Shown here: piece by piece, positions 9,886 through 42,771 of the stretch
How positions within the stretch are numbered: position 1 is the first letter of the stretch
How the letters are laid out: every line of letters begins with the position of its first letter
IMG/VR virus record: IMGVR_UViG_3300034159_000040
Reading direction: 5' to 3' (one strand)
Origin: an uncultured virus (IMG/VR IMGVR_UViG_3300034159_000040)
Lineage: Duplodnaviria > Heunggongvirae > Uroviricota > Caudoviricetes
DNA: 64,000 bases
Translations under genes and position numbers: made by a program
The notes under the pieces: model-generated
Database searches by the model: none
What the model saw: only the letters and a program-made list of their open reading frames with translations
Told to the model about the DNA's origin: nothing

Positions 9886-9890
9886 AGGGT

Positions 9891-9914
9891 CCGGCCATCC
9901 GTGGCCGGTTGTTT
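9891..9914 (+). terminator. probable intrinsic terminator after the capsid operon
   Basis: CCGGCCA-TCCG-TGGCCGG followed by TTGTTT. Confidence 0.5.
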
Positions 9915-10938: not shown

Positions 10939-10942
10939 GGCC

Positions 10943-13889: not shown

Positions 13890-13892
13890 ACC

Positions 13893-15298: not shown

Positions 15299-15299
15299 C

Positions 15300-18542: not shown

Positions 18543-18545
18543 TAG

Positions 18546-25473: not shown

Positions 25474-28400
25474 ATGGGCGATCAAGGGCCTTCCGCGTTC
25501 GACGTTTGGCAGCAGACCGGAATCATCCCGCCCGCCCCGGCGGCACCTAAACCCCAGGCGTCGGCGGCTTCCGCCTTCGGGCTGATGCCCGCGCTTGATG
25601 TACCGGCGGCCCCAGCGTTTGGGATGCCCCCGCCTGTGGTCCCGCCTGTGGTCCCGCCCGCGCAACCTTTCACGGCCCCCGCCCCGCCGCCCCCTGCCCC
25701 GAGCAAGCCCGCGCTGTCCGCTTTCGACCAATGGCAGCAAACCGGCGTCATCCCCCCTGCGTCCACGGCCGCCGCGCCAACGCCAGCACCCGCACCGACC
25801 GCGTTTGAACCTCCCGCCGCCGCACCCCCGATCGCAGCAACCCCCGATCGGGCCGCCGACCCCTATGCCTTCCGTCCCGGTGAGGCCCCGGATCAGTACG
25901 TCAAGCGCCAGCAGATCGCCAACATGGGCGACGTAGAAGCCGGGCTTCGCGGCGGCCTGGAGTCGGTCAAGAGCCTGGGCTATGGCGCCCTCGCGGCTGG
26001 AGCAGATGCGGTCGGCGCAGACAGGGTGAAGGGTTGGGCGTTGCAGGGCTACCGCGACACCGAGAAAGCGGCGGCGCCCTACCAAGAGGGTCGCCCGGCG
26101 AGTCTGGAGGACATCAAACTCGGGGAGTCCGGCGGGATCGGGCGGGCGGTCGACTGGGCACAGTACCAGTTTGGCAACGTCCTCCCGTCGATTGCCGAGA
26201 CCGTCGTCGCCGGCGCGATTGGTGCCGCGGTGGGTTCGTCGGTACCGGGTGCGGGAACCGCGGTCGGGACGGTGGCGAGCGCGGCCGGCAAAGGGTTGGC
26301 GAAAGACTGGATCAAGGGCCAGGTGGCAAAGTACGTCGCGGCCGACGTGGCGAAGGGCGTAGCCGCCGACGTGGCGCAGCAAGCCGCGCACAAGGCGGTG
26401 GCGGGTCAGATTGGCACCCGGCTGGGCATGCTGGCGTCTGGCTACCAGATGGGCCTGGGTGACGTGTACAGCGAGACCCTGAACGCCGACCAGACCGACG
26501 GCAACGCCGGGATCGCGTTCGTCGCGGCGTTGCCCTACGCGGTGTTGGATGCGGTAACGGAAATCGGCATCCTTGACCGGATCGGAAAAGGCGTGGGTGC
26601 CGACAGCCTGACCAAGTTCGCCGGCGCGATCTTCAAGGAAGCCGGCACCACGGCGCTGAAGGAAGGCGTGACCGAGGCCGCGCAAGAGGCGGTCCTGTTG
26701 GCGGCTGGGATCGCGGAAGGAAAGACCTACACCAGCGACGAGGTACTGTCGCGGTTGGGCAACGCGGGCGCGGCGGGCGCGGTGGCCGGCGGCGGTATGG
26801 GTGGCATCAGCGGGCTTGCGCGCGGGATGCAACAGACGCCTGAACAGATCGCCGCGGCGGGCGCGCAGCAGATCCAGGCTGAACCCGATCCGGCGAAACG
26901 CGAAGCGTTGAGGCAGGCGGCGGTTACGGCAGCAGCGGCGGCGATGGGGCAGGGCGGAAAGCCGCCGGCGGCAGCGCCCACACCCCCCTCCGTCAACCCC
27001 AACGCCGGCCCCCTGACAAATGCCGCCGACCTCGCTATTGCCACCGGAGCTACCAATGTCGCGGCGCAATCAGACCAAACGCAAAGCACGTCGCCGGTTT
27101 CAACTGCAACGCCGCTGGGCGGGGGCGGAAATCTTACGGATGCGGCGGCAGTACCGGGAAACATTCAATCGGGGGCGCAAGGAATACCTGGATCGACAGA
27201 TGCGGTCGGGAATCCCGCCGATAGAGGTACGACTCAAGCACCTGCTGGTGTGACCGGAGCGCCAACTGGCGAGCCACCGCCCGGGCCCCAACCACCCACC
27301 ACCCCGCCGGTATTGCCCGCTCCAGCAGACCCCGCAACCACCTCGACGGCCGAGCAGATCAAAGCCGGCATGGCCGCGCTCGCCCAGGGCGCTGGCTACG
27401 CCGGGCAACTGCGCACCGCCGAGCTGGTCGCCAAGCACGGCGAAACCCCCCTGGCAAAGCCCGAATCGATCGCGGCGGCCAAGGCTAGTCCGCTCTATCA
27501 CGTCCGCGACAACCCCGACGGCACCGCCTCGATTATTGGCGCGGTGCATCCCGACACCGGGCAGTGGGTCGGTGTCGCCCCGCCTGGAGCCCCCAATGTC
27601 GCCATTCCGCCTGCGCCGTTTGTATCCGGAAACGAAACTGGAGCAACTCAACAGCCGCCTGGGGCTGATGTGGGGGTACCGGGATCTGGTGCTCGGGAAA
27701 CACTGGATGGCGCAGGAGCGACGCCGGCGCCAGGCGCGCCATTGGCTGTACCGCAACCGCCAGGTGCACCGGCGCCTGAACTTCGACCGGCCGACTTGGC
27801 AGCAACGCCTGAAGGGCCGCCTGTGGCCCCCACACCGGCCGCACAGCCGCCCGTAGACCTTGCCCCTACGCCGACCCCTCCCGCGACCGCGGCGCCCGTA
27901 GCGGCCGCCCCGGAAACCGTCGATCCATTTAAGCCAATTATTGAGAAGATCAAGGACGGGTCTGCGTCGTTAGAGGAAGCCAAGGCGCTGGATGCGGAGT
28001 TCGTTAAACGTGCCTATTCCATCATCAATGATCCGAATGTAGTTATTCGGAGGCTTAATAGCGAGCCACTTACGGCACACGAGCAATGGGCTTATGACTT
28101 TTTGAAAAGCAAGGAGCGGAAGCTAACCCCAGCACAAGGGGAGCTATTGGATAAACTATTCTGGCCCCAGAATCTATCATCCACCCCGGAGACCCCAGCC
28201 AATGGCCCAGAAAGACCCCCGCAAGCCGACCAAACCGAGCAAGGGGCGCCCCCCGCCGTTCCCGCCGGAACGCAGCGCCAAGCAGCAGGGGCGCCCGAAC
28301 CGCAAGGAGCGGCGGGAGCCGACGGGCGCCTGGAAGGGGCCGCTGTTCCTGTAGCGCCCACGCATGAGGCGGCCGACGGCGCCCCGTTGTGGGCGACCGC

Positions 28401-31400
28401 TACGCCGGGCCTGTATCTGGATGCCGACGGCATCGAGACCGCGGATCGCTATGCGACCCCGGTAACCACCACCCCAACCGGAGCACCACCCAATGGCCAA
28501 GCCACCCACACCACCGCCTCCACAGACGCCACGCCAGGAGCGCGGGGAGAAGCCAAGCCGCCAGGACAAGGCGAAGGACCGGGGCAAGGGACCGGATCGG
28601 GACTAGGCCAGACCACCACCCCAGCAACTGGAGATCAGACCAATGTCGAAGCATCACCAACCCCTGAAAGCCTGCGCCCCGCCGAAGGGCAAGGGCGGCG
28701 CAAAGGGCAAGGGCAAGGGCAAACCGCCGGCCAGAGGGTAGCCCCCACCGCCGCGACCGAGGGGCCGACCGCGGCCCCGATCGCCCGCGAGATCGCCGGC
28801 CAGCCGCGCGCCTACAACCTGGGGCGGGCCGCGGCGCTGGATGGGAAGCCCTCGCCCAAGGTCCCACGCACGGCGTTCGCCCGCGGCTATGCCGATGTGC
28901 AGGCCGAGCAGGCGCGGCGGAAACCTACGGTCCCCACCCCCGCGGCGCCAGTTGGCAAGGAATCCTTGACGACTGCGCCAGCGGCGGGAAAAGCGCCTAA
29001 GAATATGGGCGACTTGGGCGCCGAAGTTCACGCCAATAGATTCGTCAAAAAACTGCATGATGCGGGTATTTCGGCAGCGCGAGTCTGGACCAAAGAAAAG
29101 ATCGGAACCCGAATTTACCTTCCGGGTAACTCCGGTTACATGACGATTAGCGACGATGGCACGCTATCGGATAGTGACCGCAGCAAGGTAGCTTATGAGC
29201 CAAATCAACTTTACCCGAAACAGCGACAAGCCATCGCGAAGGCGGTAAAGGAATACCGAAAGGAATCGACTGCGCTCGGCGACGAGATATTCGCACGCAA
29301 CGAATCGACCTACACCGCGGCAACTGACAAGGAATCCTTACCAGTTGGAGCGGACCAGACCCAACCACAGCCGACCTCAACCCCCCAGACCCCAGCCGCG
29401 CCGGTCGAGCCGGGCGCCGTGGTCGAGCCGGCGGCCAAGCCGGATGGAAATGACACCACGGCGATAGTCAATGCCGCCATCGACAGCGAACTTGACGCAC
29501 TCTTTGGCGTAGCCTCCGACGCGGCACCGCCAGCGACCCCCACACCGGGACCCAGCAGAACAGCCGGCCGGGCCGCGGTCAGAGCCGGGGCGAATGTTGG
29601 CAAGGGCCTCAGCGAGATCGCCAGCGGGCTGACTGCCCTCTTTGGTAGCCCCGGCCGACTGGGGTCCGGGTTGACCTTCGATGAAACGTCATACGAAAAG
29701 GCCAAGCCCCTCTTCATCGCTGGAGTCGCCCACTTCAAGGAGGCGGCGACCGATATCTCCGAGATGGTGAAGTTGCTGGTGCGCGCCCTGGTCAAGGACC
29801 ACGGACTACAGCGCGAGACCATCGAGAACATGCGGCCCTACATCCAGCGGTTCGTGCAGGACGTGCAGTCTGGTGCGGTGACGTTGGGCGAGCAGCCGCA
29901 GGAAGAACCGACCGTTGAACCGCCGACCGAGACGCCCGTGGCCACGGGCGAGCAGGAGCCGATCCCGGAACCAACGCCGACACCCGAGCCTCCCCCGACG
30001 ACCGAAGGCCCCGGCGAACAGACCAAGCCCGAGAAGGTCAAGACCCCCAAGAAGACCACGGGCGAAGCTAAGACCCCCAGGGTCAAAAAGACTACTCCAG
30101 CGGACGCGAAGGTTCCCCGCGGGGCCAAGGACCGCGGGGCTGGCACGGTGCTGGTGCGCCCGATGGATGCGATCCGCCGGGCGCTCGCGGCGCTGCGTGC
30201 GACCGACCCCAAGCACTACGTCGAGGCGGCGCTGAAGGCCGCGACGCCGGGGAAGGTGTGGGACCTGCCCGCCGTGCGCGAGGGCGTCACCCCTGGCACC
30301 CTGCGGGCGCAGGAGTGGCTGCGCGGCCAGTTGTTGAGCCCGCTGGAGTACCTTGGCGCCAAGCATGGGGGGGCGCTGGGAAAGTACCGCACCAGCTACG
30401 CCGATGCCATCGTGCGCTGGCTCAATGGTGCGGAGCGCAACAGCGACCGGGAGACGGCGCGGGCCGCCTTCGAGTCCGAGGTCGCCGACTACATCACCAC
30501 CGTTGAGGCCCTGGGGGCGAAACTCTCCGGGGCGGGCAACGTGGCCCAGGTCGCGGCGGCGATGCAGGAGTATTTGACGCCAAACGCAGTCGAGCGCGCC
30601 AAGTTCATGGACATGGACGAAGACGGCCGGGTCGAGGGGCGGTGGGGGCGCACCAAGCTCTTCGACTACACGGTCGCCGAGCAGGCCGATGCCTACGGCA
30701 AGCGCCTGCTGGAGATGCTGCGCGCGCCCCGCGACAAGCGCGGCCACAAGCTCGACCGCATCGATACCTACTTCCTTCAGGAGACCAACGAAAAATCCCC
30801 GTGGTATGGGTTCCTCAAGGGCGAAGCCGACACCGTAACCAAGCTCATCGAGCCCAAGCGGCCGGTGCTCAAAAAGATCGTGCGCGAAGGCTTCAAGGAC
30901 GTGCTTCAGGGCCGCGAGCCGACCTCCGAACTGGTCAAGGCCGAGTTCAACTTTGCGGCGGTGCCGGTTGGTAACTATGTGACCAGCACCAGCGGGGCGG
31001 CGCACCTGACCGGTTCCTTCGAGGGACTGCACGACCTGGCCGAGTTGATCGGCGCTGACCCCAAGACCGACCTGTCCTTCGGCGGGGAGTTGCACTACAG
31101 CATCGGCAAGCTCGGGCGCGGCGGGAAGGCGTCCGCCTTTTTCGCGCCGGCGTGGCCGATCTTCCGGGTCACTGAGGACGGGAAAGAGGCACTAGACGAT
31201 AACGGAATGCCGATCGTTGACGGCCATGTGAAGGCGATCAACATCACCAAGGCGGCCGGGGACGGGTCGGTTGCTCACGAGTGGGGCCACGCCCTGGACG
31301 ATGCCCTTGACGCTACCCCCGAGGGCCGGCGCATGACCGCTTTGGTCAAGGCGGCGCTGATGCACCGCCTGGACCCGGCCCGGCTGGAATCGGTCCTGGA

Positions 31401-34400
31401 TAGCATCCTGACCGGCGCCCGGTCCGATGTGGGCTACGGGTTTGACACCAAGACCAAGCGCGGGCGTCTGGATGCCGCCGCGGCGTTCCTGGAGAACGAC
31501 GGGTGGGAGTTCCCGAAGTACGGCATCAAGCGTGAGACCGACTTCTACGACCAGGCCACGCAGTTGGGCGATTACTGGAAGCGCCCGCAAGAGCTGTGGG
31601 CGCGCTCCTGGGAGGCGTCGATCTATGACTGGATGGGCGCGGAGCGGCGCTCCGACTATCTGGTCAGCGATTTCGTGAAAGAGGGGCAGTACACCAAGGG
31701 CCTGATGTACAGCGGAACCCCCTACCCGACGGGGACTGAGCGGATCGCCTTCTCGGCCATGTGGCACGAGATGCTCAAGCACGTCACTTGGGTCGACGGC
31801 AAACCCAAGGCGCTGGGCAGTTTTCAAGACCCGCTGACCGCACAACGCGACGCCATCCGTGCGCTTGCCGAGGAGTTGAAGGCCGACCTGCGCGCGCGCT
31901 ATGCCGCGCTCAACGGGATCGAGTCCGCAGATAAGCACTATTGGTATGCGTATACTGAGGACAGACGCGGGCCGGGCGCGCAACCGCCAGGCTTTGCCGC
32001 CTACGACGACGCGCATCGCCAGGGCGAGGCAACCGAGGCCCTGGGCGCGGTCGCCTACCTGGAGCCGCTGGGACCCGAGGAGATCAACTCCTTCCTGCTG
32101 GAACCGTTCCAGCACGAGGCCGGGCCATCCACCACTTACTTGACCGAGGACGAACGTGGAAACCAAGTTGACCGGGTGGGCGCACCAGGTGTGGTTGGAT
32201 CTGAAGACCAACCGACCGGCGGCGTTCGCGGCCCTGGAGCAGGCGGGAACGCTGCGGGAGACCTGCGTGACGATTCAGGAAGCGGCGAAGGATCAGGGCG
32301 CGGAACTGACATCACGGGGACTGCCGTACAACCAGGCGATGGAACTGGTGTTCAACAACCTGCTGAGGGTCCCGACGGAACAGGAGGAACCGGAGACGCC
32401 ACTGCGATTCCGGCCACCGGCAATTTCTCCGTCACCCGCCCTGATGATTTGATCCCGTCCGGCAAGGCGGAAGCCTTCGCCGACAACATCCGCGCGATCC
32501 GCCTTCTGAAGGAGATTGAAGCCGCGGGGCGCATGGCCACGCCCGCCGAGCAGGCGATCCTGGTGCAGTTCCACGGCTGGGGCGGGATCGCCAATGAGTT
32601 GTTCAGCTACCGCCGGCTGGAACCGGCCTGGCAGCGGCGCTTTGATGCGCTGGAGCAACTGTTGAGCTACGAGGAGATGACCGCGGCGCGGGCCTCTACC
32701 GTCAATGCCAACTATACCGACCCGGCGGTGGTGCGCGCCATGTGGTCGACCCTGGAGCGGATGGGCTTCGCTGGGGGCAAGGTGCTCGACCCCTCCTGCG
32801 GCGTGGGCTACTTCTTCGCCATGATGCCCAAGGAGATGGAGGCGGCATCCAAACTGATGGCGATCGACCTTGATCCGATCTCAGCGCGCCTGGCGTCCCA
32901 GGTGTTGCAGCGCACCGCGGTCAAGCAGTCGGGGTTTGAGGATGTGAAGCTGCCCGAGCGCTACTTCGACCTGGTGGTCAGCAACGTCCCCTTTGCCGAC
33001 TTTGCCCCAGTCGACAAGAAGTACAACCCTGGCAAGCGTTTCCTGCACGACTACTTCTTCCTGAAGTCGATCGAGTTGGTACGCCCCGGCGGCATCGTTG
33101 CCTTCATCACCTCGCGCGGGACCCTGGACAAGATCGCCAAGGGCGGCCCCGAGGTGCGCGCGGCCCTGGCCGCCAAGGCCGACCTGATCGGCGCCGTGCG
33201 CCTGCCCGAGAACGCCTTCAAGGAAGCGGGCATGACCACGGTCACCACCGACATCATCTTCCTGCGGCGCAAGGCCGGGGACAAAACTGACCTGACCGAG
33301 ACCTGGGGCGAGTCCCAGCCGATGGAGTTGGCAGGCATGGAGGACGTGCGCGCGGTGACGCTCGACAAGGAGGCCGGAGACGAGCGCGGCACCTACGGCC
33401 AGAAGACCGCCAACGTCAACGAGTATTACCACCGCCACCCCGAGCAGATGGCAACCCGCATGATTTGGCGTGCCGGGCGCTACGGCAACGCCTACGAACC
33501 GGCGATGGAGCCCAGCGACCAACCGATCGGCGAGACGGTACTGCCGCTGCTGGCCCGACTGCCGGGTGCCGTCATGATGGAGGAGGGCCAGGCCGCCTTT
33601 GCCGACGAGTCCATGTACGCGGTGTCGGCGGAAGTGGGCGACGTGAAGGACGGCGGCTTTGCCGAGCACGAGGGTGCCTTGTGGGTGAAGCGCGAAGGGA
33701 TGCTCTACCCGCTTGATCCGCCGCTCAAGGCCGACGACCAAGCGCGCGTGCGCGGTTACCTGGAGGTCATGAAGGGGCGGCGCGCGGTGCTCAACGCCGA
33801 GCTGCGCCAAGCCGACGACCAGGAGTTGAAGCGCCTGCGCCAGGGGCTACGCAAGCAGTATGACGCCTTCGTTAAGGCGCACGGGCCGCTCAATCTCAAG
33901 GAGAACGCCAAGGCGTTTTGGTCCGATCCGGACGCCCCGGCGGTGCTCGCCCTGGAGCATTGGGATGCCGAGGCGCAGAAGGTCGGGCGCCTGGCCGATA
34001 TCTTCACCGAGCGGGTGGTGGCGATCCGGCAGGCCCCGACCCACGCCGACAGTCCGCTCGATGCGCTCGCCGCGGCGCTCAACTACCGCGGGCGCGTGGA
34101 CTGGAAGTACATGCAGTCGCTGACCGGCCAACCCTTCGAGGCGGTGCGCGAGGGGCTACGCGGGACGGTCTACAACGATCCGCTGGCCGGCTGGGTGACG
34201 GCCGATGCGTACTTGAGCGGAAACGTGCGCGAGAAGCTCACGGCAGCCAAGACCGCGGCCGAGGTGGATGACGCCTACCAGGAGAATGTCGCGGCACTGG
34301 AGGCGATCCAGCCGCCCGACCTGACCCCGCAAGAGATCCATGCCAACTTGGGCGCGAACTGGGTCCCGGCCGAGACGGTGCGCGACTTCGTGTCTCATCT

Positions 34401-37400
34401 GCTCGACCTGAACTACCGCGGGCAAGATGCGCTGATCGTCAGCTACGCCAGGCCGACCGGTAAGTGGCATGTGCAAATCGGCGGGGAGAACGGTGCGGCG
34501 GCCAATCGCAACCAGGCCGCCATCCTGTCATCGACGCCGGCGACCGTCACCTGGGGCACCAAGCGCGCCCATCTGCTGGACCTGCTGGATCTCGCGCTCA
34601 ACGGTGGGGTGCCGCGCGTCACTGATCCGGTGGAGTATTTCGAGGACGGCCGGCGCAAGGTCCGCCAAGTCGTCAACGAGGAACAGACCGAGGCGGCCCG
34701 CGCCAAACTGGAGGCGATCCGCGACGAGTTCCAACGCTGGACCTGGGCCGACCGCTACCGCTCCGAGGCCATGGGACGGGTCTACAACGACTTGCGCAAC
34801 GCCGAGGTGCTGCGCAAATTCCAGCATCCCTATTACGTCGCAGCAAAGCCACAGGAGGCATTCCCTGGCCAGAGTCCGCACGAGCAGTTGCGCGACTACC
34901 AAGCCGGCGCGGTGTGGCGCATTCAGCAGGACCTGGACGCCTACCTGGGACACGAGGTCGGAACCGGTAAGACCTTTGAGATGATTACCGCGGGCATGGA
35001 GTTAAAGCGCACCGGGGTGAAGAAGAAACCCATGTACGCGGTGCTTGGCTCCACCGTTGGGCAGTTCCGCGCCGAGTTCCTGCGGCTCTATCCGAACGCC
35101 AATATCCTGACGATCCATATTGGCGATAACGCCCGGCAGCGGCGGTTGGCGCTGGGTCGAATCGCCAACAACAATTGGGATGCGGTGATTGTCACCCATG
35201 AGAGCTTTAACCGGATTCCGGTATCTCCCGATACCGAGATGAAGCGGATCGCTCAGGAGTTGGAGGACCTGGAGGAGGCGTTGCGCGGTGCGCGCGAGAC
35301 GGACACCGGAGGGGGGAGTTGGTCGGCGCGCGGTAAGAAGCCACCGAGCCAGGCGGTCAAGGCCCTGGAGAAGGCCAAGAAGCGACTGGAATCCAAACTC
35401 AAGACGCTCGGCGATATTCGCGAGAAGGATCAGGGGACGAGCTTCGAGGATCTGGGCGTCGATATGCTGTTTGTCGATGAGGCGCAGGAGTACAAAAACC
35501 TAGCCTTCTATACCAAACTGCAAGGTCAGGTGAAAGGGCTCGGAAACCCCAAAGGATCGGGCCGCGCCTGGGGTTTGTTCATGAAGGCGCGCTACCTGCA
35601 AGACACCTTCGGCGGCGGCGTGGTGTTGGCGAGCGGGACCCCGGTATCCAATTCGGTCGCCGAGGTCTACACCATTCAGCGGTATCTGGACTATCCCGCG
35701 TTGCGCGCGTCCGGTCTGCATCACTTTGACCGTTGGGCATCGGAGTACGGCGACATTGGGGTCGCGTCCGAGTATGCCCCCGAGGGCGGCGGCTTCCGCG
35801 AGGTGGTGCGCTTCCGGCGCTTCTACAACGCCCCGGAGATGCTGCGCGCGGTCTATCGCCGGCTCGACGTGATGACCGCGGCCGAGGCCGGCGTGCCGCG
35901 TCCAGCGATGACGGGAGGGGCGCCCGAGCAGATCGTGGTGCCACAGACCCCGACCCTGGCGGCCTTCCAAGAGACGCTGATCGTGCGGGCGAAGCGGGTG
36001 CGCAAGAATCCGCGCCAAGCCTTGCCCGACAACATGCTGAACATCGTCACCGACGGGCGCAAGGCGGCGATGGATATGCGGATGATCGACCCGGCTAATC
36101 CCGATGAGGCCGACAGCAAGACCAACAAGGCGGTCGACACGGTGTTTCGCGAGTACCAGCGCACCACCGGGATTTCCGTGAAGGACCCGACTGACCCCAA
36201 GAAGACCATCAAAATCGATGGTGTTGCGTTGGTCTTTGCTGACCTTGGGGTGCCCAACAAAGAAGGGCGCTTCTCGATCTACGACGAACTGAAGAGGAAG
36301 TTAATCGAGCGCGGAATCCCGGCGGCAGAGATCGCCTTTGCGCAAGAGACCAGCGGCTCGACCGATGTGCGGCGAGCGGCGCGATTGGCGCAGCATGGGC
36401 GAGTGCGGGCCGGAAAGATCAGGGTCTATATCGGATCAACGTCGACCATGGGCACCGGGGTGAACGTGCAGACGCGCGTCTCCCTACTGCTGCACATGGA
36501 TGTCTGGTGGAACCTCTCCAACTGGCTGCAACGCAACGGCCGCGGTATCCGCTTCGGCAACCTGTTCAGTGAAGTGAAGGTCCTCAACATCGGTGCCGAG
36601 CGCACGGTGGACACCTTCGTCTGGGACAAGGTGCAGCAGAAGGGCATCATTGTCGACAAGATTCTCAGCAAGAACCTGATCGAGCGCACCATCGAGGACG
36701 TGTCGCAAGACACCATGAGCGCAGGCGAGGCGATGGCCGCCTTCAGTGGCGATCCACGCATCAAGCGCCGGGCTGACCTTCAGGCCGACGTGCGCCGCAT
36801 GGCGGCACTGGAACGCGCCTACCAAGAAGCCCGCCGCGATGTCTTTGGGCGACTCAATCGGGCGAAGGCATGGGTCAAGCAGGCTCTCGCCGAAACGCCG
36901 GAGCAGGGCGAATACCGCGACCAACTCGAAGACCTGACGATCGACGGCGGGCTCTTGATCTTCGAGCCCAAGCGGGCGACCGCCACCGCCTTTTCGTTCC
37001 AGGAAGATGCGCAGAACAAGCGGGCTGGCGATATCACCAAGGCGCTGATTGCTGCCTATCAAGGGCAGGCGAATAAGCTGCGGGCGCAAGACTCCGCGGC
37101 TTACGATCAGGCCGATAAGGATTGGCACGACAACCCGAAGAACAAAGGCACGTTGTTGCCCTGGTCCAATTATCCCACTCGCCATCATCTACCCCCGTTG
37201 TCGGTCGGAATCTTCGCCGGGCACGGGATCAGCGCCACCTGGACGGTGAAGGACAACACGCGCCTGGAACCGCACGCCGACGACTTCGTGTCGATCCTTG
37301 CCACCAAACGCGGCAGTTACGAGTTTGGCGCGGACACCACCCCGCGCACTTTGGCGCAGGGACTACTCGCGCACATCGAGGGGAAGAATCAGGACCGCAT

Positions 37401-40400
37401 TGTGGGTCTCAAGGAGGCGCAGCGCGAGATTCCGCGGTTGGAAGCTGAGTATTCAAAGCCTTTCGCGCAGGCCGACGAGTTGCGCGACAAGGCCGATGAG
37501 TTGGACCGGTTGACTGCGGACCTGCTGCTGTCCACCGAGGATAAGTCGGTCGTGGTCGATGCGGCAGCCGAAGAACAGGCGGATGCGGCGGACCAGGGCG
37601 AGGACGAGGAGTCTGTCGATGACCAGGGCGAGGCGCTTTTCTCGCTCGGCAACCTCCCCGGCGTGCCGACCCAGACCCGCACGCGGTCCCCAGACCTGCC
37701 GCGCCTGACGCAAGCCTTCCTCGACGCCAAACTGCAACCCCTGTTTGCCAAGCTCAAGGGGCTCTCGCGCGCGGCCGACCTCCGGGTGGTGCAGACGGAA
37801 GGGGAACTGCCCGCGGCGGCCGTGGCGGGGCTGCGCGAGGCTCGCAAGGCCAACCCGAGCGCGACGGCGAAGGCGGTGTTCATCCCCGGCGAGAAGGGCG
37901 CCAAGGGGACCATCTGGGCGGTGGCGGACAATTTGGCCGACGTGCGCGATGGGATAGTGACGGTCCTCAGTCATGAGGCGTTTCACAGTGGCTTACGCCA
38001 GGCGTTCGGCCCAACCCTCAACCCCTTCCTGGACGAGTTGATCGCCGACCGCCAGGCCGACGTTGCCCTGTACGCCCGCGCACGGGGTTTGTCCATGGAA
38101 AACCTGGACGAACGCCGGGAAGCGGCTGATGAGTTCCTGGCGCACCTGGCCGAGGTCAACGCCCAGGCCGACCTGCCCTTCCTGCGCCGGGTCTATGCCG
38201 CGATCCGGGCCTGGTTGCGCAAGGCCGGCTTCGTGCTGCACTTCTCCGACGCCGACCTGCGCGAGATCGTCGCCGGGGTGGCGCAGTACAACCGCACCGG
38301 GGAGGATCGGGTGCGGGCGCAGTTGCGGGCAAGGTTTGGGCAGATGGCCGGTGAGCGAACGGGCGGGTGGCGGTTCTCAACCGGGCGGGCCGATACCGAA
38401 TTTGCTCCCGAATACCTGGCTGACGTTGGAGTGGATAACCAGGCTGATCCGCGCCTTGTGCCATCATCCCAAGCCAAGGAGTTTGACGCAGGAAAGACGG
38501 TCACACTCTACCGCGCTATGTCGATGATCGACGGCAAACTGTATCCGCCAATGTCGGCGAAGATGACCGACGAGATGGGTAATCTTGCGCTGCGTAAGCC
38601 CGAGCCAGTCGGGAAGTGGATGCGTTCCGAGGAACGGCCGGACTTGGTTCCGACTGACGGGATGTATAAAGGGCAGTTCCCGCTTAAAAAGCCAGGTGGC
38701 GGGACGACGTGGGCACTGTATGCCCCTTACTTCCACGCTTCCCCTGTTCCATTGAATGACCAGTTCACTGCCGCATGGAAGAATGATGGGGTAGAGCGTC
38801 CCCAGCTTGTGACCGTGGAAGTCGAGGTTCCCATAAGCGAGATAACAAGCGGTTATCAAGCGGAAGGATCAGTCAAAAAAGTTGGACCAAACAAGTGGAA
38901 CAGCGGCGTGGTGGCGTCCAAGGTTCCCGGTGGGCGCGAGGTTGTGCTCTCTCGGTACCTGAGAATCAAGCGAGTCGTTCCTGACTCAGAGGTAGCGCAG
39001 AAGATTGCGGCGATCGTCAACAAGAACAGGCTGAGTATTCCTGAAAACACGGTCACGCCACAACTGCGCGCAGAGTTGGAGAAAAACGGCGTTCGCATTG
39101 CGCGGAAAGGAACCAAGGGTGATGACATCCGCTATGCCACCGGCCGGGCGGGGGAACCATCCGGAACCGCCGGAGAGTTCACCGAGTCCGCCTACCGCCC
39201 CGCCGTGGTGGCCTGGGCCAAGGCGCGCTTCGGCGAGCAGCGGGCACCGGATGGGGGGTTGGCGTGGCAGAACTTTGCGCGCTGGTTCGGCAATAGCGCA
39301 ATGGTCGATCAAGCGGGGGAGCCTGTTGCACTCTATCGCGGAGACAAAGACCCGACCTTCACGACATTTGAACCGGACAAGATGGGAACGAACACAAGAA
39401 CGGAAGGATCGAAAATAGGGTTCTTTTTCACTCCTAACCGGATGTTCGCGATTAGCCCCCAATACGGCGGCGAGGTGCGAGCGTTTTATTCAAATTCGGA
39501 AAATCCATATTTTGTAAAACTCAAAAACCGCCAGATCGAGACGCAACTATTATCTGATTCGGATAAGATCGACACCAACCCACAAAAAGTGAGATCGTGG
39601 TTATTGGATCGCGGGTACGATTCAGTGATGATAGAGGGGGCTACGGCCGACAAACACATGGAATTGATAATATTGAAGTCGGAAAACGTCAAGTCAGCGA
39701 CAGATAACACCGGAGCTTTCGGCCCCTCCCCCGACATCCGCTACGCCCTGGGCGGGGCGCCGGCCGGGCCGCGGGTCGCCAGCACGCCCACCCTCACTAG
39801 CCGCATTGCTGCCGCCTTTGAACGCTACGCCCCCTACGGCTACAACATCCCCGGCCGGGCCACGTCCAAGCGCGTGCGCGGCTGGGACAAGACCGTCGGC
39901 ACCCCGCGCAACCTGGCACTCAACCAGCCCGAGTTCCGGCCGGTCTATGACGGGCTGTCGCGCCAGGCCGACTCCAATTCGAGCTATGCCATGGAGGCCG
40001 AGGCGCTGGCCCCGCACTGGTTCACCCAGATGGAGCAGGGGCCGCGCGCAGCCTGGCGTTCGGCGAAGCTGGTGCGCGGGGCGATGAGCCCGCGCGAGCT
40101 GGCCGCGGTCCAACTGGCGCTCAACGAGGGGACGCTGGCCGAGCACCGCTACAGCCCCGCCGAGTTGCAAGCCCGCGGGCTCAACGCGCGCCAGGTCGCG
40201 AGCTACACCCAGGCGCTGGCCGCCACCCACCGCAGCCTCGACAGCACCGCGCAGACCTTCCAGGCCGGGGCGCTGCGCGCGCTGCTGGAGGAACTGCACC
40301 CCGATCTACCGCCCCCCGTGCGCCATGCGATGAGCGGGCGGCTGTCGCGCCTGATCCTGGGGGAGAACGTCGCGGAGGCCGCGAGCAACGCCGAGCAGGC

Positions 40401-42771
40401 CCTGAGCCCGCTGCGCGAGGACGCGGTGCAGCGCTTCCAGGAGGCGCGGCACATGGTCACGCTGATGCGCGGGGAGCATGGCGCAGACCAGGTGGCAGAC
40501 ACCGCGGCGCAGCAGGCCCTGACGCGCGCTCAGAAGGCCCTGGACGGTGCTACTGCCAAGACCTATACCAAGGCGCACGCCGACCTGACGGCGGCGCAGA
40601 AAGCCCAGCAGGGCACCGCGCGGGCCTTGGCGCAGTCCACCAGGAATCTGGACGCGGCCGAGATGGGGCTCAAGCAAGCCGACGCCCTTGTCAAGAAGAT
40701 CGACGCCACCCAGGCGAGCATCGACGGCATCGCCGAGCGGGTCGCGGATCTGAAGGACAATGCCTATTTCCCGCTGATGCGCTTCGGTCAGTTCGCGGTC
40801 ACGGTATGGGCTGAGGAGACTGACCCGGTGACCGGGCAGACCGAGCGCAAGGTGGTGTTCTTCCGCAAGTACGCCTCTGAAGCCGAGCAGATGGACGCCT
40901 TCAAGGCGATCGATGCGGCCAAGGGACCGGGGGAGGAGGTCCACCACGGCATCACCAGCGAGGAGGGCCACAAGCTGTTCCGCGGGCTCAACATGGACAC
41001 CCTCGCGCTCTTCGCCGACCACATCGATACCACCAGCCAGGACGGCAAAGACACCGCGGCGCTGATGCAGCAGTACATCCGGCTCGCCGCGGCCGAGGCA
41101 TCGGCGCTGAAGCGCACCCTGCACCGCGAGGGCATCGCCGGCTACTCGCCCGAGGCGCAGCGGGTGTTGGCCAGCTACATCGTCAGCAACGCCCGGCTCG
41201 CCTCCAACAACCTGCACGCCGGGGACGTGGGCTATGCCATCGACGCGATCCCCCAGGGCCACGGGGATCTGCGCGACTACGCCATCAACCTGCGCGACTA
41301 CCTGGCCGATCCGGGCGAGGAGTTCGCCGGGCTGCGGCAGTTTATGTTCGCCTGGTACCTGGGGGCGTCGGTGTCCTCCGCGCTGACCAACCTCAGCCAG
41401 GTGCCGATGGTCACCGCCCCCTACCTGACCCATCAGCCGGGAAACGTGACGCGGCTCTTGAAGAACGCTTATGCCCAGGTGCTCAAGGGGCGCAAGGGGC
41501 GGCCGGACCCGGCGACGGCGCTCGGCAAAGCCTACCTGCAGGCCGAGCAGGAGGGGCTGATCTCGCCCCAGGGCATCTACAACCTGATGGCGACGGCGCG
41601 CGGCGGGACGCTGAGCCCAAGCGGCTTCATGAGCGGCCCCAACGCGCAGTTTGTGATGACGGTATGGGGGGGGTTCTTTTCGCTCGCCGAGCAAGCAAAC
41701 CGTCAGGTGACGTTCATCGCCGCCTACAACCAGGCGCTCGGCAACGGACTGAAGGACGCGGGCGCCTATGACTATGCCGCCGAGGCGGTGAACCAGACGC
41801 AGTTCGTCATGCGCAAGGAGAACCGGCCGGTGTGGGCGCGCGGGCTTGGCGCTCCGCTGTTCACCTTCAAAATGTTCACCGTAAACTACCTCGAACTGCT
41901 CGCGCGGATGCCGCTGAAGCAACGCTCGCTGATGCTGGCCGCCCTGGTAGTCGGGGCCGGACTCGGGGGACTGCCGGGCGCCGACGACGCCGAGGACATC
42001 ATCGACACCCTGATGCAGTGGTTCGGGCACAACTTCCAGTCTAAGGAGGAACTGGACCGGTGGGCCAACGCCCTGCTGGGCGAGGCTATCGGCCCCGTGG
42101 TCACTCATGGCATCAGCCGCGCCGGGTTGCCGTTCGACATCGCCAGTCGTGTCGGCATGGGCAACCTGATCCCCGGCACCGGGATACTGAAGCCAGGCAA
42201 CATCGGATCGGCCCGCGAGCAGTCGGAGTTGTGGGGGCCGATCGCCGGCATCGTCAAGGATCTCGGTACCGCCACCGAGCAGGCCGCGCGCGGCAACTGG
42301 AGCCGGGCCGCCTACGCCGCCATGCCGCGCGCCATCAAGGGCCTGGTGGATGGGACCTCGGCGATCCTCACCGGTGAGGCGCAAGACCGGTTTGGCACGC
42401 CGCTGATTCCGCTCTCGCGCACCGAGTCGATCTTCAAGGCGATCGGCTTCAACCCCGTGCGCGTGGCGCAGTTCAACGAGCAGAAGTACAGCATCCTGGA
42501 GCGCGACACCTACCGCAAGAAAATGGAGTCGGCCTACATGGACCACATGGCGCGCGCGGCACTCAAGGGCGATGCCGCCGGGGTGCAGGCGGCCAAGGAG
42601 CAGATTGCGGGGTGGAACAAGACCAACCCGGAGACCCCGATCAAGTGGACCCATGCCCAACTGCGCCAGCGGGTGAAGTCGCTGAAGTTGACCAGCAGCG
42701 CGCGGTTCCTGAAGGCGCTGTCTCCGGAACTCAGGCAGGAGGCGGCGGCAGCGTTCGGGGCTGGGGGTTAG
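25474..42771 (+). CDS. giant polyvalent DarB-like virion protein (LPD1/MPTase, N6A-MTase, SNF2 helicase, second MPTase, ART-like, PLxRFG)
   Basis: HEWGH (31276), YWKRPQELWAR, DPSCGVG (32788), NVPF (32983), HEVGTGKT (34951), DEAQ (35476), QRNGR, HEAFH (37972), WFGNS..YRGD..GFFF (about 39280-39430), PLMRFG (40771). Confidence 0.9.
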   Translation: MGDQGPSAFDVWQQTGIIPPAPAAPKPQASAASAFGLMPALDVPAAPAFGMPPPVVPPVVPPAQPFTAPAPPPPAPSKPALSAFDQWQQTGVIPPASTAAAPTPAPAPTAFEPPAAAPPIAATPDRAADPYAFRPGEAPDQYVKRQQIANMGDVEAGLRGGLESVKSLGYGALAAGADAVGADRVKGWALQGYRDTEKAAAPYQEGRPASLEDIKLGESGGIGRAVDWAQYQFGNVLPSIAETVVAGAIGAAVGSSVPGAGTAVGTVASAAGKGLAKDWIKGQVAKYVAADVAKGVAADVAQQAAHKAVAGQIGTRLGMLASGYQMGLGDVYSETLNADQTDGNAGIAFVAALPYAVLDAVTEIGILDRIGKGVGADSLTKFAGAIFKEAGTTALKEGVTEAAQEAVLLAAGIAEGKTYTSDEVLSRLGNAGAAGAVAGGGMGGISGLARGMQQTPEQIAAAGAQQIQAEPDPAKREALRQAAVTAAAAAMGQGGKPPAAAPTPPSVNPNAGPLTNAADLAIATGATNVAAQSDQTQSTSPVSTATPLGGGGNLTDAAAVPGNIQSGAQGIPGSTDAVGNPADRGTTQAPAGVTGAPTGEPPPGPQPPTTPPVLPAPADPATTSTAEQIKAGMAALAQGAGYAGQLRTAELVAKHGETPLAKPESIAAAKASPLYHVRDNPDGTASIIGAVHPDTGQWVGVAPPGAPNVAIPPAPFVSGNETGATQQPPGADVGVPGSGARETLDGAGATPAPGAPLAVPQPPGAPAPELRPADLAATPEGPPVAPTPAAQPPVDLAPTPTPPATAAPVAAAPETVDPFKPIIEKIKDGSASLEEAKALDAEFVKRAYSIINDPNVVIRRLNSEPLTAHEQWAYDFLKSKERKLTPAQGELLDKLFWPQNLSSTPETPANGPERPPQADQTEQGAPPAVPAGTQRQAAGAPEPQGAAGADGRLEGAAVPVAPTHEAADGAPLWATATPGLYLDADGIETADRYATPVTTTPTGAPPNGQATHTTASTDATPGARGEAKPPGQGEGPGQGTGSGLGQTTTPATGDQTNVEASPTPESLRPAEGQGRRKGQGQGQTAGQRVAPTAATEGPTAAPIAREIAGQPRAYNLGRAAALDGKPSPKVPRTAFARGYADVQAEQARRKPTVPTPAAPVGKESLTTAPAAGKAPKNMGDLGAEVHANRFVKKLHDAGISAARVWTKEKIGTRIYLPGNSGYMTISDDGTLSDSDRSKVAYEPNQLYPKQRQAIAKAVKEYRKESTALGDEIFARNESTYTAATDKESLPVGADQTQPQPTSTPQTPAAPVEPGAVVEPAAKPDGNDTTAIVNAAIDSELDALFGVASDAAPPATPTPGPSRTAGRAAVRAGANVGKGLSEIASGLTALFGSPGRLGSGLTFDETSYEKAKPLFIAGVAHFKEAATDISEMVKLLVRALVKDHGLQRETIENMRPYIQRFVQDVQSGAVTLGEQPQEEPTVEPPTETPVATGEQEPIPEPTPTPEPPPTTEGPGEQTKPEKVKTPKKTTGEAKTPRVKKTTPADAKVPRGAKDRGAGTVLVRPMDAIRRALAALRATDPKHYVEAALKAATPGKVWDLPAVREGVTPGTLRAQEWLRGQLLSPLEYLGAKHGGALGKYRTSYADAIVRWLNGAERNSDRETARAAFESEVADYITTVEALGAKLSGAGNVAQVAAAMQEYLTPNAVERAKFMDMDEDGRVEGRWGRTKLFDYTVAEQADAYGKRLLEMLRAPRDKRGHKLDRIDTYFLQETNEKSPWYGFLKGEADTVTKLIEPKRPVLKKIVREGFKDVLQGREPTSELVKAEFNFAAVPVGNYVTSTSGAAHLTGSFEGLHDLAELIGADPKTDLSFGGELHYSIGKLGRGGKASAFFAPAWPIFRVTEDGKEALDDNGMPIVDGHVKAINITKAAGDGSVAHEWGHALDDALDATPEGRRMTALVKAALMHRLDPARLESVLDSILTGARSDVGYGFDTKTKRGRLDAAAAFLENDGWEFPKYGIKRETDFYDQATQLGDYWKRPQELWARSWEASIYDWMGAERRSDYLVSDFVKEGQYTKGLMYSGTPYPTGTERIAFSAMWHEMLKHVTWVDGKPKALGSFQDPLTAQRDAIRALAEELKADLRARYAALNGIESADKHYWYAYTEDRRGPGAQPPGFAAYDDAHRQGEATEALGAVAYLEPLGPEEINSFLLEPFQHEAGPSTTYLTEDERGNQVDRVGAPGVVGSEDQPTGGVRGPGAGGNAAGDLRDDSGSGEGSGRGTDITGTAVQPGDGTGVQQPAEGPDGTGGTGDATAIPATGNFSVTRPDDLIPSGKAEAFADNIRAIRLLKEIEAAGRMATPAEQAILVQFHGWGGIANELFSYRRLEPAWQRRFDALEQLLSYEEMTAARASTVNANYTDPAVVRAMWSTLERMGFAGGKVLDPSCGVGYFFAMMPKEMEAASKLMAIDLDPISARLASQVLQRTAVKQSGFEDVKLPERYFDLVVSNVPFADFAPVDKKYNPGKRFLHDYFFLKSIELVRPGGIVAFITSRGTLDKIAKGGPEVRAALAAKADLIGAVRLPENAFKEAGMTTVTTDIIFLRRKAGDKTDLTETWGESQPMELAGMEDVRAVTLDKEAGDERGTYGQKTANVNEYYHRHPEQMATRMIWRAGRYGNAYEPAMEPSDQPIGETVLPLLARLPGAVMMEEGQAAFADESMYAVSAEVGDVKDGGFAEHEGALWVKREGMLYPLDPPLKADDQARVRGYLEVMKGRRAVLNAELRQADDQELKRLRQGLRKQYDAFVKAHGPLNLKENAKAFWSDPDAPAVLALEHWDAEAQKVGRLADIFTERVVAIRQAPTHADSPLDALAAALNYRGRVDWKYMQSLTGQPFEAVREGLRGTVYNDPLAGWVTADAYLSGNVREKLTAAKTAAEVDDAYQENVAALEAIQPPDLTPQEIHANLGANWVPAETVRDFVSHLLDLNYRGQDALIVSYARPTGKWHVQIGGENGAAANRNQAAILSSTPATVTWGTKRAHLLDLLDLALNGGVPRVTDPVEYFEDGRRKVRQVVNEEQTEAARAKLEAIRDEFQRWTWADRYRSEAMGRVYNDLRNAEVLRKFQHPYYVAAKPQEAFPGQSPHEQLRDYQAGAVWRIQQDLDAYLGHEVGTGKTFEMITAGMELKRTGVKKKPMYAVLGSTVGQFRAEFLRLYPNANILTIHIGDNARQRRLALGRIANNNWDAVIVTHESFNRIPVSPDTEMKRIAQELEDLEEALRGARETDTGGGSWSARGKKPPSQAVKALEKAKKRLESKLKTLGDIREKDQGTSFEDLGVDMLFVDEAQEYKNLAFYTKLQGQVKGLGNPKGSGRAWGLFMKARYLQDTFGGGVVLASGTPVSNSVAEVYTIQRYLDYPALRASGLHHFDRWASEYGDIGVASEYAPEGGGFREVVRFRRFYNAPEMLRAVYRRLDVMTAAEAGVPRPAMTGGAPEQIVVPQTPTLAAFQETLIVRAKRVRKNPRQALPDNMLNIVTDGRKAAMDMRMIDPANPDEADSKTNKAVDTVFREYQRTTGISVKDPTDPKKTIKIDGVALVFADLGVPNKEGRFSIYDELKRKLIERGIPAAEIAFAQETSGSTDVRRAARLAQHGRVRAGKIRVYIGSTSTMGTGVNVQTRVSLLLHMDVWWNLSNWLQRNGRGIRFGNLFSEVKVLNIGAERTVDTFVWDKVQQKGIIVDKILSKNLIERTIEDVSQDTMSAGEAMAAFSGDPRIKRRADLQADVRRMAALERAYQEARRDVFGRLNRAKAWVKQALAETPEQGEYRDQLEDLTIDGGLLIFEPKRATATAFSFQEDAQNKRAGDITKALIAAYQGQANKLRAQDSAAYDQADKDWHDNPKNKGTLLPWSNYPTRHHLPPLSVGIFAGHGISATWTVKDNTRLEPHADDFVSILATKRGSYEFGADTTPRTLAQGLLAHIEGKNQDRIVGLKEAQREIPRLEAEYSKPFAQADELRDKADELDRLTADLLLSTEDKSVVVDAAAEEQADAADQGEDEESVDDQGEALFSLGNLPGVPTQTRTRSPDLPRLTQAFLDAKLQPLFAKLKGLSRAADLRVVQTEGELPAAAVAGLREARKANPSATAKAVFIPGEKGAKGTIWAVADNLADVRDGIVTVLSHEAFHSGLRQAFGPTLNPFLDELIADRQADVALYARARGLSMENLDERREAADEFLAHLAEVNAQADLPFLRRVYAAIRAWLRKAGFVLHFSDADLREIVAGVAQYNRTGEDRVRAQLRARFGQMAGERTGGWRFSTGRADTEFAPEYLADVGVDNQADPRLVPSSQAKEFDAGKTVTLYRAMSMIDGKLYPPMSAKMTDEMGNLALRKPEPVGKWMRSEERPDLVPTDGMYKGQFPLKKPGGGTTWALYAPYFHASPVPLNDQFTAAWKNDGVERPQLVTVEVEVPISEITSGYQAEGSVKKVGPNKWNSGVVASKVPGGREVVLSRYLRIKRVVPDSEVAQKIAAIVNKNRLSIPENTVTPQLRAELEKNGVRIARKGTKGDDIRYATGRAGEPSGTAGEFTESAYRPAVVAWAKARFGEQRAPDGGLAWQNFARWFGNSAMVDQAGEPVALYRGDKDPTFTTFEPDKMGTNTRTEGSKIGFFFTPNRMFAISPQYGGEVRAFYSNSENPYFVKLKNRQIETQLLSDSDKIDTNPQKVRSWLLDRGYDSVMIEGATADKHMELIILKSENVKSATDNTGAFGPSPDIRYALGGAPAGPRVASTPTLTSRIAAAFERYAPYGYNIPGRATSKRVRGWDKTVGTPRNLALNQPEFRPVYDGLSRQADSNSSYAMEAEALAPHWFTQMEQGPRAAWRSAKLVRGAMSPRELAAVQLALNEGTLAEHRYSPAELQARGLNARQVASYTQALAATHRSLDSTAQTFQAGALRALLEELHPDLPPPVRHAMSGRLSRLILGENVAEAASNAEQALSPLREDAVQRFQEARHMVTLMRGEHGADQVADTAAQQALTRAQKALDGATAKTYTKAHADLTAAQKAQQGTARALAQSTRNLDAAEMGLKQADALVKKIDATQASIDGIAERVADLKDNAYFPLMRFGQFAVTVWAEETDPVTGQTERKVVFFRKYASEAEQMDAFKAIDAAKGPGEEVHHGITSEEGHKLFRGLNMDTLALFADHIDTTSQDGKDTAALMQQYIRLAAAEASALKRTLHREGIAGYSPEAQRVLASYIVSNARLASNNLHAGDVGYAIDAIPQGHGDLRDYAINLRDYLADPGEEFAGLRQFMFAWYLGASVSSALTNLSQVPMVTAPYLTHQPGNVTRLLKNAYAQVLKGRKGRPDPATALGKAYLQAEQEGLISPQGIYNLMATARGGTLSPSGFMSGPNAQFVMTVWGGFFSLAEQANRQVTFIAAYNQALGNGLKDAGAYDYAAEAVNQTQFVMRKENRPVWARGLGAPLFTFKMFTVNYLELLARMPLKQRSLMLAALVVGAGLGGLPGADDAEDIIDTLMQWFGHNFQSKEELDRWANALLGEAIGPVVTHGISRAGLPFDIASRVGMGNLIPGTGILKPGNIGSAREQSELWGPIAGIVKDLGTATEQAARGNWSRAAYAAMPRAIKGLVDGTSAILTGEAQDRFGTPLIPLSRTESIFKAIGFNPVRVAQFNEQKYSILERDTYRKKMESAYMDHMARAALKGDAAGVQAAKEQIAGWNKTNPETPIKWTHAQLRQRVKSLKLTSSARFLKALSPELRQEAAAAFGAGG
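27056..27253 (+). CDS. nested +1-frame ORF A (65 aa, Arg-rich)
   Basis: GGAG(27046)-ctacca-ATG; MSRRNQTKRKARRRFQ...LKHLLV. Confidence 0.5.
   Translation: MSRRNQTKRKARRRFQLQRRWAGAEILRMRRQYRETFNRGRKEYLDRQMRSGIPPIEVRLKHLLV
27596..27856 (+). CDS. nested +1-frame ORF B (86 aa, Arg/Trp-rich)
   Basis: GGAG(27586)-ccccca-ATG; MSPFRLRRLYPETKLEQLN... Confidence 0.5.
   Translation: MSPFRLRRLYPETKLEQLNSRLGLMWGYRDLVLGKHWMAQERRRRQARHWLYRNRQVHRRLNFDRPTWQQRLKGRLWPPHRPHSRP
28202..28354 (+). CDS. nested +1-frame ORF C (50 aa, Lys/Arg/Pro-rich)
   Basis: GGAG(28188)-N10-ATG; nearly all codons end in G/C in this frame. Confidence 0.55.
   Translation: MAQKDPRKPTKPSKGRPPPFPPERSAKQQGRPNRKERREPTGAWKGPLFL
28493..28606 (+). 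CDS. nested +1-frame ORF D (37 aa)
   Basis: GGAG(28480)-N9-ATG; MAKPPTPPPPQTPRQERGEKPSRQDKAKDRGKGPDRD. Confidence 0.5.
   Translation: MAKPPTPPPPQTPRQERGEKPSRQDKAKDRGKGPDRD
28643..28741 (+). CDS. nested +1-frame ORF E (32 aa, Gly/Lys-rich)
   Basis: GGAG(28630)-N9-ATG; MSKHHQPLKACAPPKGKGGAKGKGKGKPPARG. Confidence 0.5.
   Translation: MSKHHQPLKACAPPKGKGGAKGKGKGKPPARG
32156..32452 (+). CDS. nested +1-frame ORF F, TnpV-like (98 aa)
   Basis: GAGGA(32146)-N5-GTG; GW....LKTNRPAAFAALEQAGTL......QEAA....AMELV resembles the TnpV pattern. Confidence 0.6.
   Translation: METKLTGWAHQVWLDLKTNRPAAFAALEQAGTLRETCVTIQEAAKDQGAELTSRGLPYNQAMELVFNNLLRVPTEQEEPETPLRFRPPAISPSPALMI

Follow-up and report, generated by a model that had tools for sequence, protein, structure and literature searches.

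Evidence for small +1-frame genes nested in the giant DarB-like antirestriction gene of an uncultured phage and its relatives

Can the linker between two domains of a giant phage protein also encode small proteins in a second reading frame? The question is raised by a stretch of 64,000 nucleotides from an uncultured virus (IMG/VR record IMGVR_UViG_3300034159_000040; the whole stretch is called the window in the following), in which one open reading frame (ORF) of 5765 amino acids (25474..42771, + strand) carries five small ORFs, A to E, in a linker, each led by a Shine-Dalgarno (SD) motif. The initial annotation of the window had taken them for an internally initiated second operon of small basic peptides overprinted on the giant gene. 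Our comparison of the window with related phages indicates that small genes nested in the +1 frame are real in the family of this giant gene, where they are old and under selection in the case of a sixth nested ORF, F, and its homologues (e2), and that the arrangement is real as well for a second nested gene (e1) in Burkholderia and Ralstonia phages. The best explanation, which we hold to be rather probable, is that the giant DarB-like gene carries small +1 genes at its inter-domain linkers and that these would be initiated internally.

The giant gene encodes a polyvalent, DarB-like antirestriction protein, a virion protein with several conflict-related domains including an N6-methylase and an SNF2 helicase, and is of the same kind as the polyvalent proteins of Iyer et al. 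2017 (PMC5512222; LPD1, ART-PolyVal, N6-methylase, SNF2 helicase). Pfam recognised LPD1 (44.1 bits, cutoff 27), ART-PolyVal (46.6, cutoff 31.2) and Helicase_C (27.6, cutoff 23.5) in it as well as a methyltransferase, and the translation of 32449-36900 is 33–37% identical to 101 phage records, 74 of them with at least 80% cover; most of the 101 are annotated as 'DarB-like antirestriction'. The window is part of a Bcep22-like phage whose + strand carries the late genes.

Start signals and codon usage of ORFs A to E

All five ORFs were found complete on the + strand and in a single frame, +1 relative to the giant ORF, where the initial annotation had placed them. ORF A (27046..27253) encodes 65 amino acids and is Arg-rich (GGAG 27046-27049, ATG 27056, TGA 27251-27253), ORF B (27586..27856) encodes 86 amino acids (GGAG 27586-27589, ATG 27596, TAG 27854-27856), ORF C (28188..28354) 50 amino acids rich in Pro, Lys and Arg (GGAG 28188-28191, ATG 28202, TAG 28352-28354), ORF D (28480..28606) 37 amino acids (GGAG 28480-28483, ATG 28493) and ORF E (28630..28741) 32 amino acids with Gly/Lys repeats (GGAG 28630-28633, ATG 28643). 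As described before, each begins with GGAG, a spacer ending in CCA (6, 6, 10, 9 and 9 nucleotides from A to E) and ATG, and at these starts the giant frame reads GATNV, GAPNV, ETPANG, GAPPNG and GDQTNV; as a correction, the first ATG in the frame of ORF A lies at 27020 and the frame of ORF B opens with a TTG at 27536. Real genes of this phage have GGAG or GGAGG 5–9 nucleotides upstream of the start. A true gene at 59867 (59855-59869) has the start context GGAG...CCCCCAATG, as in the five ORFs.

Such starts might simply result from composition or pausing: linkers would use rare A/T-ending codons and SD-like GGAG, for example in order to slow ribosomes between domains, Ala/Pro/Gly/Thr-rich frames with few G/C-ending third positions (low GC3) would look coding in +1, and the ATGs would be nothing else than Asn AAT followed by G. 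That every site is located at a domain boundary fits this explanation, which we nevertheless regard as quite unlikely, as the start signals exceed chance. In the shuffled-codon control proposed with the initial annotation (3000 synonymous-codon shuffles of the linker, 26902-29001, keeping the giant protein and local codon usage) we obtained 0.70 +/- 0.77 +1 ORFs of at least 30 amino acids starting with GGAG-N5-11-ATG, compared to five observed (P=0.0003). The codons required for these starts are disfavoured elsewhere, with GGA before G in 33/398 cases (8%) and AAT before G in 22/112 (20%). The second codon is Ser or Ala in all five ORFs, compared to 12 of the 98 remaining ATGs in +1 and 14 of 24 starts that are credible as real, and pausing would need no ATG at SD distance. 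Furthermore, the RNA around the starts is weakly folded (dG(-30..+32) of -9.9, -12.5, -4.6, -7.1 and -6.9 kcal/mol for A to E) compared to the linker background (-19.5 +/- 6.6), other +1 ATGs (-20.2) and 31 real starts (-13.4 +/- 5.6). Neither the second codons nor the weak fold nor the matching signal of real genes had served to pick out the five ORFs in the initial annotation. Off-frame ORFs of the same start type and minimum length number eight in 38.5 kb of + strand genes, namely A–E, the true gene start at 3582 and two others, giving a density of five in 1.7 kb versus two in the remaining + strand coding sequence of about 36 kb. The two others, at 33965 (+1, 52 amino acids) and 2323 (+2, 32 amino acids), show no change in codon usage. 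Stops in the +1 frame are only weakly depleted in the linker (14 versus 17.9 in shuffles, P=0.065). DNA repeats shared among the five zones were not found, and an overlap of the stops of A and F with a frame-0 GTG or TTG was dropped as a feature because it is expected in three of four cases for any TGA.

The loss of G/C third-position bias that had been noticed in the giant frame was also recovered, with 125/205 four-fold sites (0.61) ending in G or C in zones A–E compared to 0.76 in the remaining linker, 0.855 in the remaining gene and 0.46 in zone F; other Ala/Pro/Gly/Thr-rich blocks hold 0.79 and do not switch frame, which argues against composition. For the corresponding gain of the +1 frame, the genes of this phage served to train a codon-usage likelihood, which was compared between frames along the giant gene. 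It prefers +1 (a flip) in 12 of 229 scoring windows, all 12 within zones A, B, C, D/E or 32149-32448, the zone of ORF F, and none outside them; this flip and the drop of GC3 in the giant frame are one and the same signal. Flip segments score 10.5 for A, 24.6 for B, 9.4 for C, 12.2 for D/E and 35.7 for F, the segment 28204-28350 coinciding with ORF C (28202-28354) and the segment 28534-28722 being common to D and E. The strongest +1 flip outside the giant gene is found at 12768-12974 within the gene 12477-13889 (score 12.8). We also shuffled synonymous codons inside each zone while keeping the composition and expressed the +1 score as z, which gave 1.68 for A, 3.04 for B, 2.91 for C, 1.93 for D, -0.54 for E and 2.37 for F. 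As 172 control segments have a mean of -0.14, a 95th percentile of 1.51 and a maximum of 2.37, B and C lie above all of them, again in disagreement with a composition effect, while A and D are borderline. Nested genes of relatives range from -1.76 to 3.36 in the same test, with a median of about 2.3 for e2.

Between zones A and B the giant frame encodes a conserved mini-domain (27343..27585, + strand; matches to residues 609-707) with 39–48% identity to P0144 and P0057. The homology stops at ...WVGVAPP, and that to P0057 ends in frame 0 at 27585, immediately before the SD motif of ORF B. The AlphaFold2 (AF2) model of ORF B is one long helix (predicted local distance difference test, pLDDT, 71; predicted template modelling score, pTM, 0.33).

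ORF F and the e2 family

A sixth +1 ORF, absent from the five of the initial annotation, is located directly upstream of the methylase module. ORF F (32146..32452, + strand) encodes a TnpV-like protein of 98 amino acids, with GAGG (32146-32149) six bases before its GTG (32156) and a TGA at 32450-32452, so that it stops at 32452 where the methylase homology begins (near 32449). It was picked by a gene caller on a Logan contig, and a homologue of 104 amino acids from another metagenome (P0152) is 59% identical without gaps over 83 residues and has the same start and end. No match to P0152 was found in plasmid and phage collections, and no longer relatives of ORF F were found. Its Atlas recognition is 2496, with clusters of free-standing proteins of about 100 amino acids as neighbours, one of these clusters carrying TnpV on 13% of its members. 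AF2 folds it into a four-helix domain (core pLDDT 84–87) that has no match in the PDB at E <=0.001 and in BFVD a best row of E 0.072 to part of a large protein. Positions 21-81 of the TnpV profile (PF14198), which describes a small protein of conjugative transposons, are matched by ORF F (E 0.0056), P0152 (0.00044) and e2 of phage Itty13 (0.015); since all scores (17.1, 20.6 and 15.7 bits, respectively) are below the gathering score of 27, we call ORF F 'TnpV-like' only. TnpV genes are free-standing, in contrast to the nested genes described here.

By e2 family we mean TnpV-like genes that lie in the +1 frame, directly precede the DarB-like methylase and are crossed by an open giant frame. Judged by its sequence, position and frame ORF F is a member of this family, and A–E are not. 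In all 12 cultured phages checked, e2 is nested in +1 within the annotated giant coding sequence (CDS), encodes about 100–110 amino acids and has an SD motif and a start codon. An e2 of about 107 amino acids with a strong SD motif, ATG and flip scores of 84–131 is present in phages of Burkholderia (BcepIL02, DC1, BcepMigl, JC1, CSP3), Ralstonia (Gamede, Heva) and Pseudomonas (Itty13). A profile of six members, whose seeds include ORF F, which aligns with the IL02, JC1, Gamede and Itty13 members, finds e2 in +1 in four non-member phages (Klebsiella phage SopranoGao, Vibrio phage VvAW1, Ochrobactrum phage POI1126 and Agrobacterium phage Atu_ph08) at E values from 1e-16 to 7e-24, and tblastn adds Erwinia and Microcystis phages. 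These genes are largely missing from the records: no CDS is annotated inside the giant CDS in eight locus tables from Burkholderia and Ralstonia phages, and of 21 records with an Itty13-type e2, 18 list only the giant gene beneath it, two are Itty13 records with their CDSs on the other strand and one is 'orf33' of Sinorhizobium phage PBC5. For Itty13 (NC_070969.1 161-11419) RefSeq has three 'hypothetical proteins' opposite a DarB-like open frame of 4111 codons, and the annotation of the giant gene apparently follows the wrong strand.

The arrangement was also followed in 79 IMG/VR loci collected by methylase alignment, two pairs of which look like duplicates. A match to the e2 profile upstream of the methylase was found in 42 of them, covering a GC content from 0.31 to 0.69; in 42/42 it lies in +1 and the methylase frame is open across it. 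The giant frame is open over the whole e2 ORF in all 41 loci in which the start could be set, although synonymous shuffles of e2 keep it open with a mean probability of only 0.32 (product 1e-33), and in the low-GC examples stops abound in the third frame. In all 29 loci with a GC content of at least 0.57 a +1 flip closely precedes the methylase, with further +1 segments in 11 and a +2 segment in only two. No flip of at least 12 was detected in 13 distant polyvalent loci (GC 0.35–0.52), a negative that carries little weight, since e2 itself was picked up by the flips in no more than 3/39 low-GC loci.

In order to see which frame is constrained, substitutions were compared between frames. Among five Lessieviruses the ratio of nonsynonymous to synonymous changes (pN/pS) of the e2 zone is 0.46 for the nested, 0.94 for the giant and 1.13 for the third frame, compared to 0.19 for the giant frame in the neighbouring methylase of the same phages. 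When the e2 events are placed at random, the nested frame shows 28 synonymous events versus 18.1 +/- 3.2 expected (P=0.002) and the giant frame 18 versus 19.3; a control methylase stretch shows the opposite selection pattern to the e2 and e1 zones.

SD-like elements stimulate frameshifting in prfB and dnaX, which would favour recoding as an alternative, in which ribosomes shift to +1 near GGAG...CCAATG and terminate, leaving truncated N-terminal fragments with basic tails instead of free small proteins. It could be read from PBC5, where the giant gene is annotated in two pieces (4898-11440 and 13072-20646) and e2 is in frame with the upstream piece, forming its C-terminus, and from phrog_938 ('endolysin', 2185 columns), which carries e2 at positions 2084-2160; the PBC5 arrangement may be a genuine split and fusion, or else stem from a mistake in an old sequence. 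On indirect evidence we consider recoding very improbable, as the e2 frame is closed by a stop at most 10 codons upstream of the start in 18/41 loci, a start codon is located within 12 nucleotides of profile position 1 in 27/41, P0152 and ORF F share both their start and their end point, and a giant frame left by frameshifting would not need to stay open, as it does in 41/41.

ORF F is moreover predicted by a fold model to bind the methylase module (32452-34551), the modelled contact involving residues 401-509 (33652..33978, + strand), in particular module residues 481-499 and residues 44-55 of F. The interface score ipSAE was 0.77, 0.76 and 0.00 in three runs (median 0.76) with 0.00 for the best of three controls, and the mark applied to it is reached by 116/157 solved complexes and 2/215 mismatched pairs; these values are to be read with a partner pLDDT of at least 69, a run agreement of at least 1% of contacts and a two-row alignment.

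The e1 gene and a nested HNH cassette

A second nested +1 ORF, e1, encodes 48–62 amino acids behind AGGAGG or GGAGG and is located 2.5–2.9 kb into the giant gene. All seven Burkholderia and Ralstonia phages carry it, in giant genes of Lessievirus and Cimandefvirus, with 46% identity between JC1 and Gamede, and its context in the giant frame (...QEAAN A..., ...LEEAN G...) is built like the five sites of the window. Among three Lessieviruses pN/pS is 0.45 in the nested frame and 1.53 in the giant frame, with 11 synonymous events versus 5.9 expected (P=0.012); the Ralstonia trio is too similar (96.5–99.5% at the amino acid level) for selection tests. From the conservation of F, e2 and e1, their own SD motifs and starts and the purifying selection on the nested frame it follows that nested genes are real in this family, and the same architecture under +1 selection in relatives also speaks against an explanation of A–E by composition.

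Two candidate links between e1 and ORF B were rejected. ORF B is not recognised as the e1 counterpart, as the e1 profile gives nothing above background among 1318 ORF segments of the window (best E 1.1, and not ORF B), and the profile of the frame-0 mini-domain preceding ORF B has no match before e1. Rejected as well was the idea of A–F as a compensated frameshift of an in-frame domain, since the +1 peptides match none of 150 homologous large proteins (best E 0.12).

Cassettes of another type can also be found inside the coding frame. Inside gp42 of Gamede (10337-10891) lies a nested +1 gene for an HNH endonuclease of 184 amino acids (phrog_3377, E 1.6e-56) with AAGGAG and ATG, across which the giant CDS of Gamede stays open. 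Heva and Dimitile, whose giant proteins are 96.5% identical, are without about 94 codons at this site, and the HNH gene looks like a mobile cassette inserted within the coding frame. It resembles free-standing phage homing endonucleases in being present or absent between near-identical phages and differs from them in lying inside an open coding frame and not in an intergenic region, intron or intein. Four Lessieviruses (L017:17350-17424, DC1, JC1, CSP3) share a short +1 flip (scores 14–17) some 10.4 kb from the beginning of the giant gene, with no SD-led start in three of the four.

What ORFs A to E are likely to be

Several observations weigh against A–E, and in part e1, as genes. The statistics on A–E were computed after the pattern had been seen, and the selection test of e1 is based on 25 events from three phages. 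Flip scores of control genes reach 12.8 and 9.9, so that A, C and D/E are individually marginal and only B and F stand out alone. Some points favour composition directly: the +1 codon score mostly follows composition, the means of the composition-keeping shuffles being already positive, the lengths of the +1 ORFs are ordinary compared to shuffles (P = 0.09 to 1.0), and with its z of -0.54 ORF E gives no coding signal that composition would not explain. The peptides C, D and E are of low complexity (Pro/Lys/Arg/Gly), e1 itself has z values of -0.88 and -1.76 in two phages, the pairwise E value of 0.03 between B and e1 is not trustworthy and the ESM recognition of ORF B is low (1419); an Atlas search with ORF B gave nothing. 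Homologues are also missing: none of the five ORFs has a match in Pfam and PHROGs, none of seven variants was found by exact look-up, a word search with ORF B found no homologue, tblastn of the A–E peptides against the phage collection, a check suggested at the outset, yielded chance-level rows only, and the 79 IMG/VR loci hold no homologue of A–E. Peat-metagenome contigs of relatives align to the flanks and not to zones C and D/E (joints 28233/28355 and 28463/28946, both ambiguous), which means that these zones are fast-evolving or replaced.

The sequence of the linker itself was recovered repeatedly. Independent Logan contigs from peat metagenomes differ by one letter over 26500-28818, and an IMG/VR contig that ends at 29731 is 100% identical to the window from there onward. 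The stretch 26900-29000 is present in nine peat-metagenome runs from nine studies, seven of them with at least half of its sampled words and five flagged as possible sources; none of the runs listed for it is from RNA. Over the linker, the contigs of peat runs X6–X9 are identical copies only, and a relative of 80–86% identity found at low depth in run X6 is confined to 30301-32826. Searches with the linker found no relative in the phage collection (blastn and tblastn, DNA and protein), the same phage only among viral contigs, and nothing in genome contigs and metagenome contigs.

Could A–E be fossil frames, the remains of small genes or cassettes captured recently, now read through by the giant ORF and untranslated? 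The codon signature, which marks +1 as the older frame, the missing homologues, the unaligned zones C and D/E and the entry of a cassette into the giant gene of Gamede would all agree with this. We nevertheless think it unlikely, because all five keep the SD motif, ATG, open frame and unstructured start together, of which decay should have lost some, and because nested genes of the same style are under purifying selection in relatives.

As nested genes are established in the family, A–E become plausible lineage-specific members of that class. They share with the established nested genes the start architecture, the frame and the location at a domain boundary, and A–D also the size of the coding signal. 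By their intrinsic signals B and C are well supported and A and D moderately, E by its start signal only; B is the best supported of the five and E the weakest. We infer that A–D, with E being doubtful, are lineage-specific genes of the same kind as F. It seems somewhat probable from these signals that at least some of A–D are translated and selected genes, and unlikely that all five are.

The internally initiated second operon of the initial annotation can therefore be retained in part: F, e1 and e2 are conserved with their own SD motif and start and show selection, but a functional operon unit of A–E, which lack homologues and include an E without coding signal, is not supported, and neither are the DNA-condensing, inhibitor or regulator roles suggested for the peptides. 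'Overprinted' is not the appropriate term, as codon usage and pN/pS mark +1 as the constrained frame, while the giant frame is kept merely open; the giant frame is the passenger. The additional suggestion that the linker arose by read-through of small genes fits better.

In the model we propose, nested genes would sit where the giant protein has inter-domain linkers, each with its own SD motif and start codon at a place where the late messenger RNA is locally unfolded, and would be translated by internal initiation on this RNA. Ribosomes in the giant frame would cross the same DNA and yield a disordered linker rich in Ala, Pro, Gly and Glu that might be constrained only to hold no stop. The small products would probably work in cis while the giant protein is being made, either as small subunits of the neighbouring domains or as partners in their assembly, for which the fold model of F is an example and which for A–E is pure conjecture. 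The nested genes may go back to small genes that were captured or inserted in the single frame that casts a shadow free of stops.

Complete small genes with their own start inside a larger gene of the same strand and in another frame are known from the Rz/Rz1 spanins of lambda-like and Bcep22-like phages, Rz1 also lying in the +1 frame. Records of the relatives annotate the embedded spanin pair (BcepIL02 gp75/gp76). With Rz/Rz1 both products are structured partners and one gene is nested, whereas the host frame considered here encodes nothing but a disordered linker in a polyvalent protein of 4000–6000 amino acids, is under no selection at the amino acid level (pN/pS 0.94–1.53) and contains several nested ORFs per gene. 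In the part of the JC1 paper considered here (PMC9144972) 'embedded' is applied to Rz1 only and DarB is described as a single massive DarB-like protein that occurs in virions. Overprinted genes of small viruses likewise have both frames of one stretch translated, as far as covered by the part of the source used here (PMC8227390); with overprinting it is the new frame whose codon usage is atypical, while here the nested frame is typical and selected and the giant frame atypical. The paper on polyvalent proteins (PMC5512222) nowhere uses the terms TnpV, overlapping, frameshift or linker, and a literature search for DarB-like or polyvalent proteins together with nested or embedded genes or TnpV found nothing relevant, although an earlier mention is possible. 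Nested genes are known in phages but are not known to occur inside polyvalent/DarB-like giant genes.

In summary, a TnpV-like nested gene occurs in well-studied phages of Burkholderia, Ralstonia, Pseudomonas, Klebsiella, Erwinia, Vibrio, Agrobacterium and Ochrobactrum and would add a missing component, with a predicted partner surface on the methylase module, to a widespread antirestriction machine. About 100 codons of dual coding appear to have persisted over a very long time although one of the two frames acts as a mere spacer, and gene finders systematically miss such nested genes. The five ORFs flagged in the window change from a curiosity to plausible lineage-specific members of this class. 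It is possible, if still tentative, that the inter-domain DNA in general encodes +1 partners (e2, e1, the HNH cassette and A–E) docking onto the neighbouring domains of the giant protein. If this is true, new linkers and new small partners would arise together upon the capture or insertion of a small gene.

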